In this document: positions 13,324 through 41,656 of the stretch, piece by piece
Numbering within the stretch: position 1 is the first letter of the stretch
Layout of the letters: each line of letters starts with the position of its first letter
Origin: Shigella phage vB_SsoM_113
Length of the DNA: 64,000 nt
Reading direction: 5' to 3' (one strand)
Sequence record: LR746311
Notes under the pieces: generated by a model
What the model was told of the DNA's origin: nothing
The model's input: the letters and a program-made list of their open reading frames with translations, nothing else
The model's database searches: none
Translations under genes and position numbers: made by a program

Positions 13324-13353
13324 GTTTACAAGACTGTTCCTCTGTGGTACTAT
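13324..13353 (+). promoter_or_regulatory. T4-type early promoter
   Basis: GTTTAC -35 at 13324, A-rich upstream, -10 region ggTACTATacaact. Confidence 0.55.
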
Positions 13354-13387
13354 ACAACTATCAACCAATACAAATTTGGAGAATGAA

Positions 13388-38326: not shown

Positions 38327-38656
38327 ATGATTTATTGTATGAATATCGGTGATTCCGACACAAAAGAGATTAAACTGCATGGAAATCATCATGCTAATAT
38401 TGTGTACTGTAATAAATTTGAGTTTGGCCATGAAAAACTTGGGTTTCTTTACTGCAATGATGTTATAGTCATGGATAAAAAGGAACTCGATGAACTCGAC
38501 CATAAGTCTTTAGATGAAAATGATCGAATTTATTATGGCACTCTTAAAGTATATAACGCTTATCTCAGCGGTAAAAAGGAAAGTCTAAATGCAGAAAACG
38601 AATCCGGGTTTACAGAGACTATTTCAGATTCCGACATTTACCCTATCGAACAGTGA
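38327..38656 (+). CDS. hypothetical protein (109 aa)
   Basis: AAGGAAAAA RBS; overlaps denB start by 68 nt. Confidence 0.5.
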   Translation: MIYCMNIGDSDTKEIKLHGNHHANIVYCNKFEFGHEKLGFLYCNDVIVMDKKELDELDHKSLDENDRIYYGTLKVYNAYLSGKKESLNAENESGFTETISDSDIYPIEQ

Positions 38657-39146
38657 CTTGACTAGTGAAATGAAGGTCAAAATTGCTGATACAGCAAGAT
38701 ACTCTTTAAAACAAGACCCGAACCAGGATAAAGCAGAAGTTATCGAAAGATGCCGTATCGCGGTGTACGCAGAGTTTTTTGTAGCAGATTGGCTGAGCGG
38801 GTATGTTAACAAAGGCCAAGAGGATGTTAATGACCCGTATACATACGCATGGGATGTATTGGCGCATCCAAGATACTGTGGGCTTCGTGTAGAAGTTAAG
38901 ACACACCAAACTGACTCACGTTGGATTTCGGTAACAACAGGATGCAGCGGGGAGTATCCATACGGTTCTGGAATAAATCTAGGGCCCATTCTGAATCACC
39001 AAGTCGCTGATTGTATAATTATATTCAACACTAAAGAAATTCATCCAGGTGTCATCCAGTACACTCCGAAGTTCATCGGTGACAGAGAAGACCTTCGTAA
39101 GGTTGTAAGAAAAAGCAACTACAATGGATGGTATCTTTCCATTTAA
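38589..39146 (+). CDS. denB: endonuclease IV (DenB)
   Basis: 185-aa product MQKTNPGLQRLFQIPTFTLSNSDLTSEMKVKIADTARYSL, recognised as T4 DenB. Confidence 0.9.
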   Translation: MQKTNPGLQRLFQIPTFTLSNSDLTSEMKVKIADTARYSLKQDPNQDKAEVIERCRIAVYAEFFVADWLSGYVNKGQEDVNDPYTYAWDVLAHPRYCGLRVEVKTHQTDSRWISVTTGCSGEYPYGSGINLGPILNHQVADCIIIFNTKEIHPGVIQYTPKFIGDREDLRKVVRKSNYNGWYLSI

Positions 39147-39162
39147 AAATTTTCACAAAACG

Positions 39163-39192
39163 GTTTACATACCACAAGGACTGTGGTACTAT
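39163..39192 (+). promoter_or_regulatory. T4-type early promoter (copy of the 60571 cassette)
   Basis: GTTTAC 39163-39168, spacer ataccacaaggactgtgg, -10 TACTATacaact. Confidence 0.55.
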
Positions 39193-39226
39193 ACAACTAT
39201 CAACTGATACGGATTTGGAGAATAAA

Positions 39227-39433
39227 ATGTTTACTACGGCTGAATTAAAACGAGCAAAAGCTAAGAAAGGGCAAGGAAAATATAAAGCTGAATTAGTTAA
39301 AGAACTTCAGTTTGCTGAGGCTGAATTGAATTCGATGATTATTCAAAATGTTCCAGAAACTGAAATTGCTCTTAAACGTATTGCGAATAAATGTCTTCGT
39401 GATACAATCGTCGATCTTTTAGCGGATTATTGA
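39227..39433 (+). CDS. hypothetical protein (68 aa)
   Basis: GGAGAATAAA RBS, ATG 39227. Confidence 0.5.
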   Translation: MFTTAELKRAKAKKGQGKYKAELVKELQFAEAELNSMIIQNVPETEIALKRIANKCLRDTIVDLLADY

Positions 39434-39438
39434 GTAAA

Positions 39439-39702
39439 ATGAAATTTAAATTTTATTACGCTAAACATAAAATAACTGATGAGTTTGTGTCAGTTGAATA
39501 TTCTAGCGATGATGAAGGTATGATTTATACTCGTTTGGGATTATCACACTGGGAGTCTGATACGCCTTATTTTTCAACTCCCGAAGAAATTATACGCTTA
39601 GTTAATGGTCATATGAATGACCACTGGGATGTAATTCTTTCAGATAGTCTTAAAGCGGCTATTAATAGTAATGAAATGAAAATCGCTGAGATTGAACTAT
39701 GA
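39439..39702 (+). CDS. hypothetical protein (87 aa)
   Basis: ATG ORF. Confidence 0.45.
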   Translation: MKFKFYYAKHKITDEFVSVEYSSDDEGMIYTRLGLSHWESDTPYFSTPEEIIRLVNGHMNDHWDVILSDSLKAAINSNEMKIAEIEL

Positions 39703-39785
39703 GTTCATTATGGTGGTGTTTTGTTTGGTTAATTAGTATTCCATTGATTTGTTTAGTATTTACTTTTGTGATGAGGTTATTATGA
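39699..39785 (+). CDS. tiny hydrophobic ORF (28 aa)
   Basis: ATGA-coupled; MSSLWWCFVWLISIPLICLVF. Confidence 0.25.
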   Translation: MSSLWWCFVWLISIPLICLVFTFVMRLL

Positions 39786-39880
39786 AAATTTTGAATTCTG
39801 TACTTATTGCTTGTGCGTGGTGGATTGCGCAAGTTTCAGCGGTAGTGATTGGTATTCACATTTATTACGAATATTTTTAA
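39782..39880 (+). CDS. tiny hydrophobic ORF (32 aa)
   Basis: ATGA-coupled; GAGG RBS; MKILNSVLIACAWWIAQVSAVVIG. Confidence 0.3.
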   Translation: MKILNSVLIACAWWIAQVSAVVIGIHIYYEYF

Positions 39881-39887
39881 AAAAGTT

Positions 39888-39917
39888 GTTTACAAGACTG
39901 TTCCTCTGTGGTACTAT
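39888..39917 (+). promoter_or_regulatory. T4-type early promoter (copy of the 13324 cassette)
   Basis: GTTTACaagactgttcctctgtggTACTAT, identical to 13324-13353. Confidence 0.55.
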
Positions 39918-39945
39918 ACAACTATCAACTACGGAGGAACAGAAA

Positions 39946-40059
39946 ATGAAAAAGATTGTTAAAGCTATATGGAATGTAGTTATAATACTAGTAGTTTTGA
40001 GTATATTCCCAATCGTTTTAATGATTGATGTATTAAACGCTTACTTTGGATTTATGTGA
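39946..40059 (+). CDS. tiny membrane protein (37 aa)
   Basis: GGAGG RBS; single TM segment. Confidence 0.35.
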   Translation: MKKIVKAIWNVVIILVVLSIFPIVLMIDVLNAYFGFM

Positions 40060-40066
40060 GGAAAAT

Positions 40067-40264
40067 ATGAAGCGTAAACGCAGTGCTTTTATATTTGTTG
40101 AATGGTTTTTTGATAATATTTTTCCGGCTTTATTCATTTTCATGCTGATTTTCGCCTTAGGTTCAGTTGTAGTTGGAATTTATTTGATGGCAGTTGTCGG
40201 AATGGATATTCACCAAAATGGCTTAAAATCTGTTGTTGAAACAATTTGGAATGGTGTAAAATGA
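40067..40264 (+). CDS. small membrane protein (65 aa)
   Basis: GAGGAAA RBS; TM segment. Confidence 0.4.
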   Translation: MKRKRSAFIFVEWFFDNIFPALFIFMLIFALGSVVVGIYLMAVVGMDIHQNGLKSVVETIWNGVK

Positions 40265-40371
40265 TGAATTTATTGAGTGGTTGGTTTTATATTCTCATGT
40301 TTTACGTCGGTGCAAATTTTCCGTATTGGATGGGATGGTCAACAACTGCATTTGGATTTTATACTCCCTGA
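40261..40371 (+). CDS. tiny hydrophobic ORF (36 aa)
   Basis: ATGA-coupled; aromatic-rich hydrophobic peptide. Confidence 0.3.
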   Translation: MMNLLSGWFYILMFYVGANFPYWMGWSTTAFGFYTP

Positions 40372-40379
40372 GGTGAATT

Positions 40380-40595
40380 ATGAAAATTTTTAAAGATGTA
40401 AAAGTTGGCGAAATTTTTTGCTTAGATAGTGGTGATCAGTTAATTCGTATTTCACCTCTTAAGAGCACTAGCGAGAAAATGACAGTTAATGCTACTTTAG
40501 CAAACAACAGTAATGAACGTTTCTGTATTGAAAATGATACTGAAACTTATACCGTAGAAGAGTTCTGGGAATTGAGCGTCGACTGCGACGATTAA
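40380..40595 (+). CDS. hypothetical protein (71 aa)
   Basis: GAGGTGA RBS. Confidence 0.5.
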   Translation: MKIFKDVKVGEIFCLDSGDQLIRISPLKSTSEKMTVNATLANNSNERFCIENDTETYTVEEFWELSVDCDD

Positions 40596-40654
40596 TTTAT
40601 CGGCCGTGTGTATTCATGCGGCCTTGGAGTAGAAAATAATTAGAGGAAATTAAT

Positions 40655-41107
40655 ATGAAATACATGACTGTTACTGATCTGAATAATGCAGGTGCTACTG
40701 TTATTGGTACAATCAAGGGCGGTGAATGGTTTTTGGGAACTCCGCACAAAGATATTTTATCTAAACCTGGATTTTACTTTTTAATAAGTGAATTCGATGG
40801 TTCATATGGTTCATGCGTATCTGCACGATTTTATGTAGGTAATCAGCGTTCTAAGCAAGGGTTTAGTGCAGTTCTAAGTCATATTCGTCAACGTCGGTCT
40901 CAGCTCGCGCGCACTATTGCAAATAATAATGTTCCATACGCAGTATTTTATTTGCCTGCTTCTAAGATGAAACCTTTGACGACAGGATTTGGAAAAGGTC
41001 AGTTAGCTTTAGCGTTTACTCGTAATCATCATTCTGAGTATCAAACACTTGAAGAAATGAACCGTATGTTGGCTGATAACTTTAAATTTGTTTTGCAGGT
41101 ATACTAA
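40655..41107 (+). CDS. ndd: nucleoid disruption protein Ndd
   Basis: 150-aa product [42 protein letters not shown], recognised as T4 Ndd. Confidence 0.9.
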
Positions 41108-41187
41108 TGAGTAATTTCCATAACGAACATGTGATGCAGTTCTATCGTAACAATCTTAAAACTAAAGGCGTCTTCGGACGCCAGTGA
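41107..41187 (+). CDS. stp: Stp peptide (activator of host PrrC anticodon nuclease)
   Basis: 26-codon [29 protein letters not shown] right after ndd (TAATG). Confidence 0.8.
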
Positions 41188-41194
41188 GGAAAAT

Positions 41195-41350
41195 ATGAAA
41201 TTTGTTCACGGTATAACCTTTTTCTGTTGGTTCTTTTTATGCATCGGAACAGTAATAACTGGAGAAACTTCAGTATTTTTGCAAGCATCAGCTCAGGGCG
41301 TATTAGCGATTTTATCATTATTCGCGTACATTGGTTCTAAAAATAGTTGA
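41195..41350 (+). CDS. ac: small membrane protein (51 aa) at the position of T4 ac
   Basis: GAGGAAA RBS; hydrophobic 51-aa ORF between stp and 52. Confidence 0.6.
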   Translation: MKFVHGITFFCWFFLCIGTVITGETSVFLQASAQGVLAILSLFAYIGSKNS

Positions 41351-41360
41351 GGAGAATATT

Positions 41361-41519
41361 ATGAATATCGCAAAATTATTAGGAGTTATTTCATTTATTT
41401 GTTGGATAGTAGCATGTGTTTTAACTATCTGTATCGATGCTAGCAGTGTGTTTTCACAAGCTTTAGCCCAGGGTATGTGTGCATATTTAACATTTGTGTT
41501 GTTATCTACTAATGATTAA
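41361..41519 (+). CDS. small membrane protein (52 aa)
   Basis: GGAGAA RBS; TM segment. Confidence 0.4.
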   Translation: MNIAKLLGVISFICWIVACVLTICIDASSVFSQALAQGMCAYLTFVLLSTND

Positions 41520-41656
41520 GAAAATCTTGGGCTATTCATTAGCCCTTGCTACTTTATTGGTAGCACTATATTATGGAGTAATGTTCGGATTAATTCAAGT
41601 CGTGCTTTTCATTTCTGATGTTATTATGGCACTACATTCACTAGTATGGTAAATTT

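Follow-up and report, generated by a model that had tools for sequence, protein, structure and literature searches.

Five Small Predicted Membrane-Protein Genes between denB and ndd of a Tequatrovirus Are Orthologues of T4 ndd.6 to ndd.2

Organization of the denB-ndd Interval

The window, by which we mean the whole 64,000-nucleotide stretch of DNA analysed, is from a Tequatrovirus and is 95-97% identical to Tequatroviruses. Five small ORFs, here numbered ORF1 to ORF5, tile positions 39699-40371 on the + strand, and all five start with ATG. They and their surroundings are as follows.

38589..39146, + strand: denB (endonuclease IV), 185-aa ORF, 98-99% identical to Tequatrovirus DenB; the upstream anchor
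39164..39192, + strand: early-type promoter-like site 1, TTTACA-N17-TACTAT, TG-extended, upstream of the 68-aa ORF
39227..39433, + strand: 68-aa ORF, equivalent to PST ORF269 and RB32ORF266c; phrog_4535; not hydrophobic; absent from T4
39439..39702, + strand: 87-aa ORF, equivalent to PST ORF268; phrog_2390; not hydrophobic
39699..39785, + strand: ORF1 (T4 ndd.6), 28 aa; phrog_8851, E 4.8e-16, residues 1-28 of the 28-position profile
39782..39880, + strand: ORF2 (T4 ndd.5), 32 aa; phrog_5011, E 1.5e-25, 1-32 of 32
39889..39917, + strand: early-type promoter-like site 2, TTTACA-N17-TACTAT with an upstream TG, between ORF2 and ORF3 in a PeSL-type cassette
39898..39942, + strand: hairpin with arms 39898-39912 and 39928-39942; 15 pairs, -23.4 kcal/mol, z = -4.2
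39946..40059, + strand: ORF3 (T4 ndd.4), 37 aa; phrog_3098, E 3.1e-21, 1-37 of 37
40067..40264, + strand: ORF4 (T4 ndd.3 and ndd.2a as a single gene), 65 aa; Pfam DUF7248 (PF23906); phrog_2401, E 3.9e-29
40261..40371, + strand: ORF5 (T4 ndd.2), 36 aa, coupled to ORF4; phrog_4135, E 5e-24
40380..40595, + strand: ndd.1 (named after the T4 annotation), 71 aa, soluble; phrog_2183; the downstream neighbor of ORF5
40655..41107, + strand: ndd (nucleoid disruption protein), 150-aa ORF, 91-93% identical to Tequatrovirus Ndd; the downstream anchor
41195-41350: ac, annotated

The original prediction described five consecutive ORFs of 28, 32, 37, 65, and 36 codons, and these sizes and their coordinates are exact. 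It placed them between denB and ndd; they do lie inside that interval but are flush with neither gene, as the 68- and 87-aa ORFs separate denB (annotated in T4, PST, and RB14) from ORF1, and ndd.1 separates ORF5 from ndd. The ORFs were also said to be mostly ATGA-coupled, which is true of ORF1/ORF2 and of ORF4/ORF5 (overlap at 40261-40264) but not of the other two of the four internal junctions: a 7-nt gap lies between ORF3 and ORF4, and 65 nt containing the second early-type promoter lie between ORF2 and ORF3, so the five ORFs do not constitute one uninterrupted run. Upstream, the stop of the 87-aa ORF overlaps the start of ORF1 by ATGA. A Shine-Dalgarno sequence is recognizable for ORF1 to ORF4, and ORF5 has a weak GGA only.

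On the + strand, 89.3% of 39699-40371 lies within ATG-initiated ORFs of at least 25 aa, and on the minus strand 16%. Mean coverage in the shuffle control was 32% (sd 18%), and only 4 of 5000 dinucleotide shuffles reached 88%. The T content of the five-ORF stretch is 41%, versus 31.5% window-wide; T-richness by itself favors hydrophobic codons. Gene content here is fluid: genes are gained and lost by lineage, close relatives differ by cassette indels, and PeSL-type repeats are present.

Orthology with T4 Genes and Annotation

The five ORFs are orthologues of T4 ndd.6, ndd.5, ndd.4, ndd.3/ndd.2a, and ndd.2, respectively. Gene order, location between denB and ndd, and lengths are all alike in T4 (ndd.6-ndd.2, T4p275-T4p270), the peptides are 92-95% identical, and every one of the five ORFs matches its PHROG profile over the full length. 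ORF1 is 93% identical to T4 Ndd.6, lies at the equivalent position, and conserves the motif W-C-x-x-W-x-x-x-I-P-x-I-C; ORF2 is 94% identical to Ndd.5 and, as in T4, overlaps its upstream gene by ATGA. The Ndd.4 motif KKxxKAIWN ... IFPxVxMID, conserved in 37 of the 42 sources surveyed for homologs, is present in ORF3, which consists of a basic N-terminus, a transmembrane-length segment with a conserved proline, an invariant aspartate, and an aromatic tail. ORF4 scores 70.2 bits against PF23906 (cut-off 27), its residues 13-63 aligning to profile positions 8-57 of 58; a basic N-terminus and a long hydrophobic helix precede the conserved tail GLKSVVxxIWNG. ORF5, 94% identical to Ndd.2, contains no charged residue, is 33% aromatic, and carries the motif VGxNxPYWxG. 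The novelty implied by the original prediction was thus mistaken, and discovery value is slight: ndd.2-ndd.6 are long-annotated genes that have been on the T4 map for decades, and PHROG and Pfam entries exist.

The T4 reference differs from the source phage in three respects. First, it splits into ndd.3 and ndd.2a what is a single 65-aa gene in the source phage. The split is due to one G missing at the ATGAA[G]CGT site of the reference record (AF158101/NC_000866), a loss not found in two re-sequenced T4 genomes; these and all other Tequatroviruses examined have the undivided 65-aa gene, and the T4 reference pair should be one DUF7248 gene. Second, T4 ndd.4 is annotated as 42 aa, whereas ORF3 has 37; the T4 gene has probably been given a start five codons upstream of the true one. 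Third, T4 is without the 68- and 87-aa ORFs that the source phage carries upstream, retaining just the last 8 codons of the latter as a remnant ATGA-coupled to ndd.6.

Such small genes had been expected to be easily missed by annotation, and they often are: of 17 Tequatrovirus records, only 2 annotate ORF1, 11 annotate ORF3, 12 annotate ORF2, and 14 annotate ORF5; all 17 annotate ORF4. Several records call Ndd.4 or Ndd.1 "naphthalene 1,2-dioxygenase". There is, therefore, modest curation value in merging ndd.3/ndd.2a, correcting the ndd.4 start, restoring omitted ndd.6, ndd.5, and ndd.4, and removing wrong labels.

Coding Evidence and Conservation

Intactness was counted over 23 Tequatrovirus copies of the five ORFs, i.e., 115 instances, and 113 frames were intact (22/23 for ORF1, 23/23 for ORF2); remaining indels fell in two intergenic A-runs or were in-frame. 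Pooled substitutions by codon position were 21/11/55, a third-position bias with P=1e-8, and pN/pS in the annotated frame was 0.07-0.17 for ORF1, ORF2, ORF4, and ORF5, with higher values in shifted frames. Homologs were then surveyed in 42 sources, using loci picked via Ndd. Those of Ndd.4, DUF7248, Ndd.2, and Ndd.6, with conserved motifs, occupy the same position in Gaprivervirus, Kanagawavirus, Jiaodavirus, Marfavirus, and Kagamiyamavirus, five genera in which Ndd is only 45-63% identical; the motifs are conserved at the protein level where the DNA can no longer be aligned. The original prediction was to be given up if the frames were not conserved in related phages; almost all are intact there, with third-position bias, and four of the five families extend to other genera.

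Substitutions in ORF4 were 5/3/29, with a pN/pS of 0.07 and homologs in 24/42 sources; a word-indexed homolog search with ORF4 returned close relatives only. For ORF5, the corresponding values were 6/4/13 (P=0.02), 0.14, and 20/42, and comparison with its Marfavirus homolog gave a pN of 0.35 and a pS of 0.95. Homologs of ORF3 were the most widespread (37/42), and its cross-genus pN was 0.23-0.27 versus a pS of 0.66-0.84; pN was well under pS across genera for ORF3, ORF4, and ORF5 alike. Within Tequatrovirus, ORF3 codon variants comprised one synonymous and six non-synonymous, and its coding support comes from the cross-genus comparison only. RNA structure was sought in the ORF3 body as an explanation for the missing synonymous change, and none was found (z = -0.88, +1.32). 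An exhaustive phmmer scan with ORF3 gave just six cluster representatives of 37-80 aa, none of them a fusion to a larger domain.

ORF1 and ORF2 demand closer consideration. It is unlikely, in our judgment, that only ORF3, ORF4, and ORF5 yield functional peptides and that ORF1 and/or ORF2 are relay frames, kept open mainly for ribosomes arriving from the 87-aa ORF via ATGA coupling and with an amino-acid sequence of little importance. The T4 remnant of the 87-aa ORF, still coupled to ndd.6, would fit such relaying, as would the absence of any ORF2 (ndd.5) homolog outside Tequatrovirus among the 42 sources. However, ORF2 is intact in every copy and its 11 substitutions (3/1/7, P=0.04) gave seven synonymous and four non-synonymous codon variants, the replacements all being conservative; pN/pS was 0.11 versus >1.6 or undefined in shifted frames. 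For ORF1, third-position bias was not significant (3/1/4, P=0.26), cross-genus dN/dS was mostly 0.45-0.73 with two pairs >1, and in one relative (L004) a 2-nt insertion alters the C-terminus and extends the frame, all of which could be accommodated by relaying. Yet 19/42 sources have an ORF1 homolog, Gaprivervirus and a Kanagawavirus locus among them, and the ORF1 motif is retained across several lineages at an overall identity of 38-50%. In addition, there is no coding sequence between ORF2 and the next promoter, and therefore no gene for a relay to serve. From these comparisons we infer with considerable confidence that ORF2 to ORF5 encode real, translated membrane microproteins, and with somewhat less confidence that ORF1 does so as well.

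Predicted Membrane Character of the Peptides

Each ORF had been described as encoding a single aromatic-rich hydrophobic segment, and this is borne out: each of the five peptides has one uncharged run (25, 27, 21, 30, and 36 residues in ORF1 to ORF5, respectively), and F+W+Y constitutes 14-33% of residues, versus 11-13% in DenB and Ndd. On the Kyte-Doolittle scale, the best 19-residue window scores 2.2-3.0 for ORF1 to ORF4, whereas the ORF5 value of 1.16 is borderline for a transmembrane helix. AlphaFold2 models ORF4 as one helix over residues 3-64 (pLDDT 84.6); a lone helix makes a fold search uninformative. The positive-inside rule suggests an N-terminus-in, C-terminus-out topology for both Ndd.4 and DUF7248. 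Shigella phage Sf25 contains a natural in-frame Ndd.4::DUF7248 chimera in which one hydrophobic segment is retained and whose Ndd.4 part is assigned to PF26889 in precomputed annotation; this fits the two families sharing one membrane orientation. The triplet IWN occurs in both, N-terminal in Ndd.4 and C-terminal in DUF7248, which the predicted topology would put on opposite sides of the membrane, and is probably a coincidence.

ORF2 has LIAC at residues 8-11, which may be compared with the lipobox [LVI][ASTVI][GAS]C, but it follows a segment of just 10 residues and the usual lipoprotein signal peptides are longer than that; ORF1, ORF3, ORF4, and ORF5 have no lipobox. Being a lipoprotein would justify the legacy "outer membrane protein" label that Ndd.5 bears.

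Small inner-membrane regulators of bacteria such as AcrZ, MgrB, MgtS, CydX, and KdpF work by binding larger membrane proteins. Like the phage peptides as predicted from sequence, they are shorter than about 65 residues, have a single transmembrane helix, and are without an enzymatic domain; unlike them, the ORFs are phage-encoded and expressed only in infection, and the two groups have no sequence similarity. By analogy, the kinship is a resemblance in kind and not membership. Closer to home, Ac (51 aa, acridine resistance) and Imm (superinfection immunity) of T4 are small membrane proteins with known roles, again with no sequence similarity to the ORFs; both are early, non-essential, small, and hydrophobic and alter host envelope properties, and ac is within the same deletable region.

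Promoters and a Hairpin over the ORF3 Ribosome-Binding Site

The five ORFs were originally thought to be driven by an early promoter. Early-type sites are indeed present, but there are two of them and not one. They have a 25-nt exact repeat in common, site 2 has a 41-nt identical copy at position 13325, and both match the PST/T4 PeSL promoter consensus TTTACW-N17-TAYWAT (PMC4122927). Early expression is also what T4 RNA-seq indicates, the ndd.2 to ndd.6 transcripts being classed as early (PMC9697503 Table S2).

The surroundings of site 2 have the hallmarks of the PeSL cassettes described by Arbiol et al. (2010, PMC2839356) and Comeau et al. (2014, PMC4122927), the latter of whom discuss the denB-ndd locus itself: an early sigma-70-type promoter, a stem-loop that extends over spacer and -10 box, a start codon downstream with its Shine-Dalgarno sequence, a hyperplastic region, genomic repeats, and indels between relatives. 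The 5' arm of the hairpin lies within the promoter spacer and its loop contains the -10 box; GGAGG, the ORF3 ribosome-binding site, is covered by the 3' arm. Although 14 such promoters occur in the window, full pairing with its own ribosome-binding site is found at site 2 only. Four of the five types of substitution in the arms preserve pairing; no double compensatory change was found within Tequatrovirus. Analogous hairpins with different arm sequences are present in other genera, and mean duplex energy was -17.2 kcal/mol for cognate arms versus -9.4±3.6 kcal/mol for non-cognate, but in Kanagawavirus the hairpin pairs only weakly with the ribosome-binding site, and one locus (L016) has no cognate advantage.

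PeSL stem-loops have been published as terminators or attenuators. In the present case, the ORF3 ribosome-binding site forms the 3' arm and a terminator scan of the locus found no hairpin with a U-run, and therefore it is more natural to think of the stem-loop as masking read-through RNA from translation. Two expression units can be proposed. The first would run from the promoter at 39164 through the 68-aa ORF, the 87-aa ORF, ORF1, and ORF2, its genes being ATGA-coupled beginning with the 87-aa ORF, and the second from the internal promoter at 39889 through ORF3, ORF4, ORF5, ndd.1, and ndd. In RNA reading through from the first unit, the hairpin would pair with and may mask the ORF3 ribosome-binding site; RNA begun at the internal promoter would lack the 5' arm, leaving that site free. 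The same logic applies to T4 e, soc, 49, and I-TevI, where a promoter in or next to a hairpin yields RNA without the 5' arm: the hairpin sequesters the ribosome-binding site in the longer transcript from upstream, and the promoter-proximal transcript leaves it free. Those genes, however, contrast early with late transcripts, whereas here both promoters are of early type, as judged from their sequences.

Expression, Dispensability, and Possible Function

We consider it likely that these are five separate, non-essential, immediate-early genes for microproteins of 28-65 residues with one predicted membrane-spanning helix each. The microproteins would appear within minutes of infection and would then insert into the host inner membrane, where they may bind host membrane proteins or perturb lipid metabolism, in the manner of small membrane proteins of bacteria. 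Ndd.2, 2a, 3, 4, 5, and 6 were not detected in a mass-spectrometric study of the T4 proteome, but this is weak counter-evidence because short hydrophobic peptides are hard to see by that method. Ndd.1 was detected early in T4.

The T4 deletion saΔ9 runs from 52.1 to denB and takes ndd.1 to ndd.6 with it, yet is viable with a yield of ~50% (PMC6071114). Phosphatidylglycerol synthesis, which T4 stimulates after infection, is no longer stimulated with saΔ9, and this response is likewise lost with the overlapping rIIΔDD2. As a genetic lead this is coarse: each deletion removes several genes, in a background with multiple mutations, and the lipid phenotype could just as well stem from denB, ndd, ac, or 52.1. 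That one of the five microproteins causes the stimulation is improbable. It is more speculative again to suppose that at least one of them, most plausibly Ndd.4 or DUF7248, is an early T4 lipid-reprogramming factor that binds a host inner-membrane enzyme or regulator and whose hairpin-gated translation would be confined to promoter-proximal early RNA. Kutter et al. (2018) raise the question of which early genes between 52 and rIIB alter host phospholipid synthesis; Ndd.4 and DUF7248 provide a short candidate list, which narrows an old open problem.

Instead of modulating metabolism, the microproteins might be counter-defence or exclusion factors, neutralizing membrane-associated abortive-infection or exclusion systems or blocking entry of superinfecting DNA in the manner of T4 Imm. 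The neighbors denB, ndd, stp, and ac do form a host-interaction gene block, stp itself being a 26-aa peptide that acts on the host EcoprrI/PrrC system; the plasticity and lineage-specific gain and loss of the region are typical of arms-race accessory genes, and the genes are non-essential on laboratory hosts. Nevertheless, PADLOC revealed no sequence link to known defence or anti-defence families, and the conservation of Ndd.4 and DUF7248 in phages of different host genera is better fitted by a conserved host target; we regard a counter-defence role as doubtful. By far the least probable idea is that the ORFs are chance open frames, a gene-annotation artefact of a T-rich (41%), recombination-prone intergenic region full of promoter and stem-loop cassettes whose PeSL-type repeats, cassette indels between close relatives, and mass-spectrometrically unseen products might encourage that view: it is already contradicted by the comparative sequence data, i.e., the intact frames, the pooled third-position bias, and protein motifs conserved beyond DNA alignability, as well as by the rarity of such tiling among shuffles and the Shine-Dalgarno matches at ORF1 to ORF4.

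Other Candidates Considered

The suggestion in the original prediction that the microproteins could modulate host membrane transporters or defence proteins gained no support: scans of the five ORFs against NCBIfam and PADLOC gave no match above noise; a match of ORF3 to KwaA (PADLOC, 13.8 bits) and one of ORF5 to glutamate-cysteine ligase (10 bits) were attributed to the transmembrane segment or to chance. A type I toxin of the Hok, TisB, Ibs, or Ldr type was likewise unsupported, there being no sign of an overlapping antisense RNA: with E values up to 1 allowed, Rfam returned nothing for 39000-41300 on either strand, and the sole minus-strand promoter-like site overlapping the cassette (40384-40356, at the last codons of ORF5) was no better than the shuffle background, with 13 promoter-like sites found versus 11.3 expected. 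The conserved order ndd.4, DUF7248, ndd.2, (ndd.1), ndd had raised the idea that the microproteins tether Ndd and the host DNA to the membrane. This was set aside because ndd alone is reportedly sufficient for nucleoid disruption, Bouet et al. being said to have disrupted the nucleoid with cloned ndd alone in 1998; moreover, loci picked via Ndd are no measure of co-occurrence with it. Literature searches under "ndd.2a" and related names found nothing relevant, and these genes are not mentioned in the main text of the CRISPRi-ART T4 preprint. The Mosigvirus "Emp" is a 109-aa protein adjoining motA and is unrelated to the five ORFs; its preprint also has a mildly inhibitory Gp263.

Gene content between denB and ndd

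The region around ORF1-ORF5 is an early region of the T4 type. A 2.9-kb stretch around the locus matched 577 phage records, and the top matches were Tequatroviruses (HMD-9, PST, and ime09) at 95-97% identity. The gene order is as follows.

Genes and ORFs from denB to ac
38589-39146, + strand, denB, the first gene in the region's order
39227-39702 (together), + strand, 68-aa ORF then 87-aa ORF, between denB and ORF1; these are PST ORF269/268
39699-39785, + strand, ORF1, 28 aa
39782-39880, + strand, ORF2, 32 aa
39946-40059, + strand, ORF3, 37 aa
40067-40264, + strand, ORF4, 65 aa
40261-40371, + strand, ORF5, 36 aa
40380-40595, + strand, ndd.1, directly after the five small ORFs
40655-41107, + strand, ndd, after ndd.1
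after ndd, + strand, 26-aa ORF identical to T4 Stp, then ac

The original prediction of five tiny ORFs was exact in position and size, and their tiling is far beyond chance: ORFs cover 89% of the strand versus 32±18% in 5000 dinucleotide shuffles, only four of which reached at least 88%. Each peptide contains, as had been claimed, a single aromatic-rich hydrophobic segment, seen as one uncharged run of 21-36 residues with an aromatic content of 14-33%. The run was also said to be mostly ATGA-coupled and driven by an early promoter. Within it, the ATGA overlap is found at ORF1/ORF2 and ORF4/ORF5 (and, upstream, at the 87-aa ORF/ORF1 junction) but not at the other internal junctions, including the 65-nt gap between ORF2 and ORF3; early-type promoter sites are present, but there are two, and the second lies inside this gap and splits the run into two units.

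The five ORFs are already known genes, not new ones. Between denB and ndd.1, T4 (NC_000866) is annotated with ndd.6 (28 aa), ndd.5 (32 aa), ndd.4 (42 aa), ndd.3 (26 aa), ndd.2a (40 aa), and ndd.2 (36 aa); ORF1, ORF2, ORF3, and ORF5 correspond to ndd.6, ndd.5, ndd.4, and ndd.2, respectively, and ORF4 to ndd.3 plus ndd.2a. The peptides are 92-95% identical to their T4 counterparts, and each of the five matches a PHROG family over its full length (8851, 5011, 3098, 2401, and 4135, from ORF1 to ORF5). ORF4 also scores 70 bits with Pfam DUF7248, for which the cut-off is 27.

More small hydrophobic ORFs are found downstream of stp at 41195-41652, and the membrane-microprotein cluster thus reaches past ndd. 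They comprise ac (51 aa), an ac-like ORF whose product (MNIAKLLGV...SSVFSQALAQG) resembles Ac (TSVFLQASAQG), and a further 52-aa hydrophobic ORF.

Conservation of the reading frames

Among 23 Tequatrovirus copies of the locus, 113 of 115 ORF copies are intact; the remaining indels consist of single-nucleotide changes in a pair of intergenic A-runs and one codon inserted in frame. Substitutions at the first, second, and third codon positions number 3/1/4 in ORF1, 3/1/7 in ORF2, 4/2/2 in ORF3, 5/3/29 in ORF4, and 6/4/13 in ORF5, or 21/11/55 when pooled (P=1e-8). In their annotated frames, ORF1, ORF2, ORF4, and ORF5 have a pN/pS of 0.07-0.17, with higher values in shifted frames.

A cross-genus set was assembled from 36 loci retrieved with Ndd as the query (Ndd identity 45-93%), which with annotated records gave 42 sources. 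Of these, 37 have Ndd.4-like peptides, 24 DUF7248, 20 Ndd.2-like peptides, and 19 Ndd.6-like peptides, and Ndd.5 is confined to Tequatrovirus; among the lineages with homologs are Gaprivervirus VR20, Kanagawavirus CIP9, Jiaodavirus KP1, Marfavirus Marfa, and Kagamiyamavirus EcS1. Four motifs are conserved: KKxxKAIWN...IFPxVxMID in Ndd.4, GLKSVVxxIWNG in DUF7248, VGxNxPYWxG in Ndd.2, and WCxxWxxxIPxIC in Ndd.6. Across genera, pN for ORF3 is 0.23-0.27 versus a pS of 0.66-0.84; pN is also far below pS for ORF4 and ORF5, and the contrast is weaker for ORF1. Intact frames, third-position bias, and cross-genus pN below pS together mean that the frames are conserved in relatives, the coding status of ORF1 and ORF2 being the least secure of the five.

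ORF3 (39946-40059) is the sole part of the cassette with a DNA-level alignment to other genera. Within Tequatrovirus (21 sequences), it has one synonymous versus six non-synonymous codon variants, whereas pS in the adjacent ORF4 and ORF5 is 0.16-0.45. A search for RNA structure in the ORF3 body gave nothing significant, and the near-absence of synonymous change may stem from a recent sweep or from gene conversion, or may simply reflect how small the sample is. Two variants were noted in ndd.6: a 2-nt insertion near its 3' end lengthens the frame to 83 aa in an IMG/VR Tequatrovirus (L004, 2369-2620), and PD112 has an additional in-frame Trp codon (WWW).

A promoter-like site within a hairpin upstream of ORF3

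Two promoter-like sites, one at 39164 and one at 39889, fit the PST/T4 consensus for promoters of promoter-early stem-loop (PeSL) cassettes (PMC4122927), and they have an exact 25-nt repeat in common (39181-39205 and 39906-39930). At the second site, 39898-39912 pairs with 39928-39942 in a 15-pair hairpin (-23.4 kcal/mol, z = -4.2), in which the promoter spacer holds the 5' arm, the loop holds the -10 box, and the 3' arm lies over the GGAGG of ORF3. Pairing is kept by four of the five arm substitution types in Tequatroviruses, and the same design with other arm sequences occurs upstream of ndd.4 homologs in other genera (loci L008, L015, L016, and L021). Cognate spacer/SD duplexes average -17.2 kcal/mol versus -9.4±3.6 for non-cognate ones; Tequatrovirus and Gaprivervirus show a strong cognate advantage, Jiaodavirus a marginal one, Kanagawavirus a weak one or none, and L016 none. 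Of the 14 early-type promoters in the window, only that at 39889 pairs fully with its own ribosome-binding site.

This element is a PeSL, a previously described class whose stem-loop has been interpreted as a terminator or attenuator (PMC2839356), whereas here the 3' arm covers the ORF3 ribosome-binding site, and we infer from the sequence that the hairpin may mask that site. Read-through RNA from upstream would hide it in the hairpin, and RNA begun at the internal promoter would leave it free. Such masking was not found described for PeSLs in the PeSL literature (PMC2839356, PMC4122927).

A 41-nt stretch at 13325-13365 repeats the 39889 promoter exactly, spacer included, but is without the complementary 3' arm. 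The repeated copies (13325, 39164, and 39889) could serve as substrates for the PeSL-mediated recombination known from the literature.

Expression and possible function

In T4, transcripts of ndd.2, ndd.2a, ndd.3, ndd.4, ndd.5, and ndd.6 are classed as early, and their proteins are listed as "NA" (not detected); by contrast, both Ndd and Ndd.1 were detected (PMC9697503, Table S2). Early RNA and conserved frames uphold the view that these are real early genes; the products are probably five separate, immediate-early, non-essential, single-pass inner-membrane microproteins, which might target lipid synthesis, a transporter, or a defence protein. As a whole, the original interpretation is partly supported: the genes are real and early, their products are probably membrane microproteins, and annotation often overlooks them, whereas an action on host transporters or defence proteins is hypothetical.

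The sole functional lead for ndd.2-ndd.6 is a lipid-synthesis phenotype. The T4 saΔ9 deletion, which spans 52.1, ac, stp, ndd, ndd.1-6, and denB, gives a phage yield ~50% of wild type and abolishes the post-infection stimulation of phospholipid synthesis; stimulation of phosphatidylglycerol is lost in the overlapping rIIΔDD2 (PMC6071114). Its authors asked which genes are responsible and pointed out that a membrane location is predicted for several proteins encoded there (PMC6071114). The lead is coarse because the deletions cover many genes in multiply mutant backgrounds. The main value of this analysis lies in curation and in a short list of candidates for this phenotype.

NCBIfam, PADLOC, and Rfam searches for function gave no match above noise, and an exhaustive scan with ORF3 returned six cluster representatives, all of them small and none fused to a larger functional domain. 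The AlphaFold2 model of ORF4 is a single helix (residues 3-64, pLDDT 84.6). Basic N-termini precede the hydrophobic helix in Ndd.4 (MKK..K) and DUF7248 (MKRKR), which by the positive-inside rule suggests an N-in, C-out topology for both; the invariant Asp and aromatic tail of Ndd.4 and the DUF7248 tail GLKSVVxxIWNG would then be periplasmic. Gp120 of Shigella phage Sf25 (62 aa; PF26889 and PF23906) is a natural chimera in which Ndd.4 residues 1-28 (through MID), three junction residues, and the C-terminal half of the DUF7248 protein are joined in frame. It has a single hydrophobic segment, which fits the same orientation for both proteins.

Annotation of the region

Annotation of the micro-ORFs is inconsistent, and they are indeed easily missed: among 17 records, ORF1 is annotated in 2, ORF3 in 11, ORF2 in 12, ORF5 in 14, and ORF4 in all 17. 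In a 720-nt comparison, the T4 reference departs from two independent T4 re-sequencings (MT984581 and OZ209023) solely by one missing G, ATGAA[G]CGT (window site 40072). The 65-aa DUF7248 protein is intact in both re-sequenced genomes and in all other Tequatroviruses examined; ndd.3 and ndd.2a are therefore one 65-aa gene, and the split is peculiar to NC_000866. The annotated start of the 42-aa T4 ndd.4 (MEEQK-MKK...; 737-865 on the reverse complement of the T4 locus) is an ATG that owes its existence to a T4-specific C-to-T change in the hairpin arm (window position 39932), and it lacks a Shine-Dalgarno sequence; the conserved start, 8 nt past GGAGG, gives a 37-aa product in every relative.

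T4 lacks the 68-aa and 87-aa ORFs except for the last eight codons of the latter (MKIAEIEL), which are fused after the promoter and ATGA-coupled to ndd.6. Since ndd.6 and ndd.5 are intact yet unannotated in the PST record, the published "exchange of ndd.4/.5 for ORF268/269" looks like the simple presence or absence (an indel) of ORF269/268.

The 37-aa Ndd.4 or the 71-aa Ndd.1 is named "naphthalene 1,2-dioxygenase" in several GenBank/RefSeq records (PST, HMD-9, F26, and others), evidently a mis-expanded gene-name abbreviation that was then propagated. Legacy labels of "outer membrane protein" or "periplasmic protein" for these 28-65-aa peptides are unsupported. In a Jiaodavirus-like contig (L036; 1575-2968 and 3489-3943), two larger inserted ORFs, of 202 aa and 263 aa, separate the denB-proximal ORF from the ndd.4 homolog; the 263-aa ORF has the DPPY motif that is typical of DNA adenine methyltransferases. 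In this contig ndd is seemingly split into ORFs of 43 aa and 107 aa.
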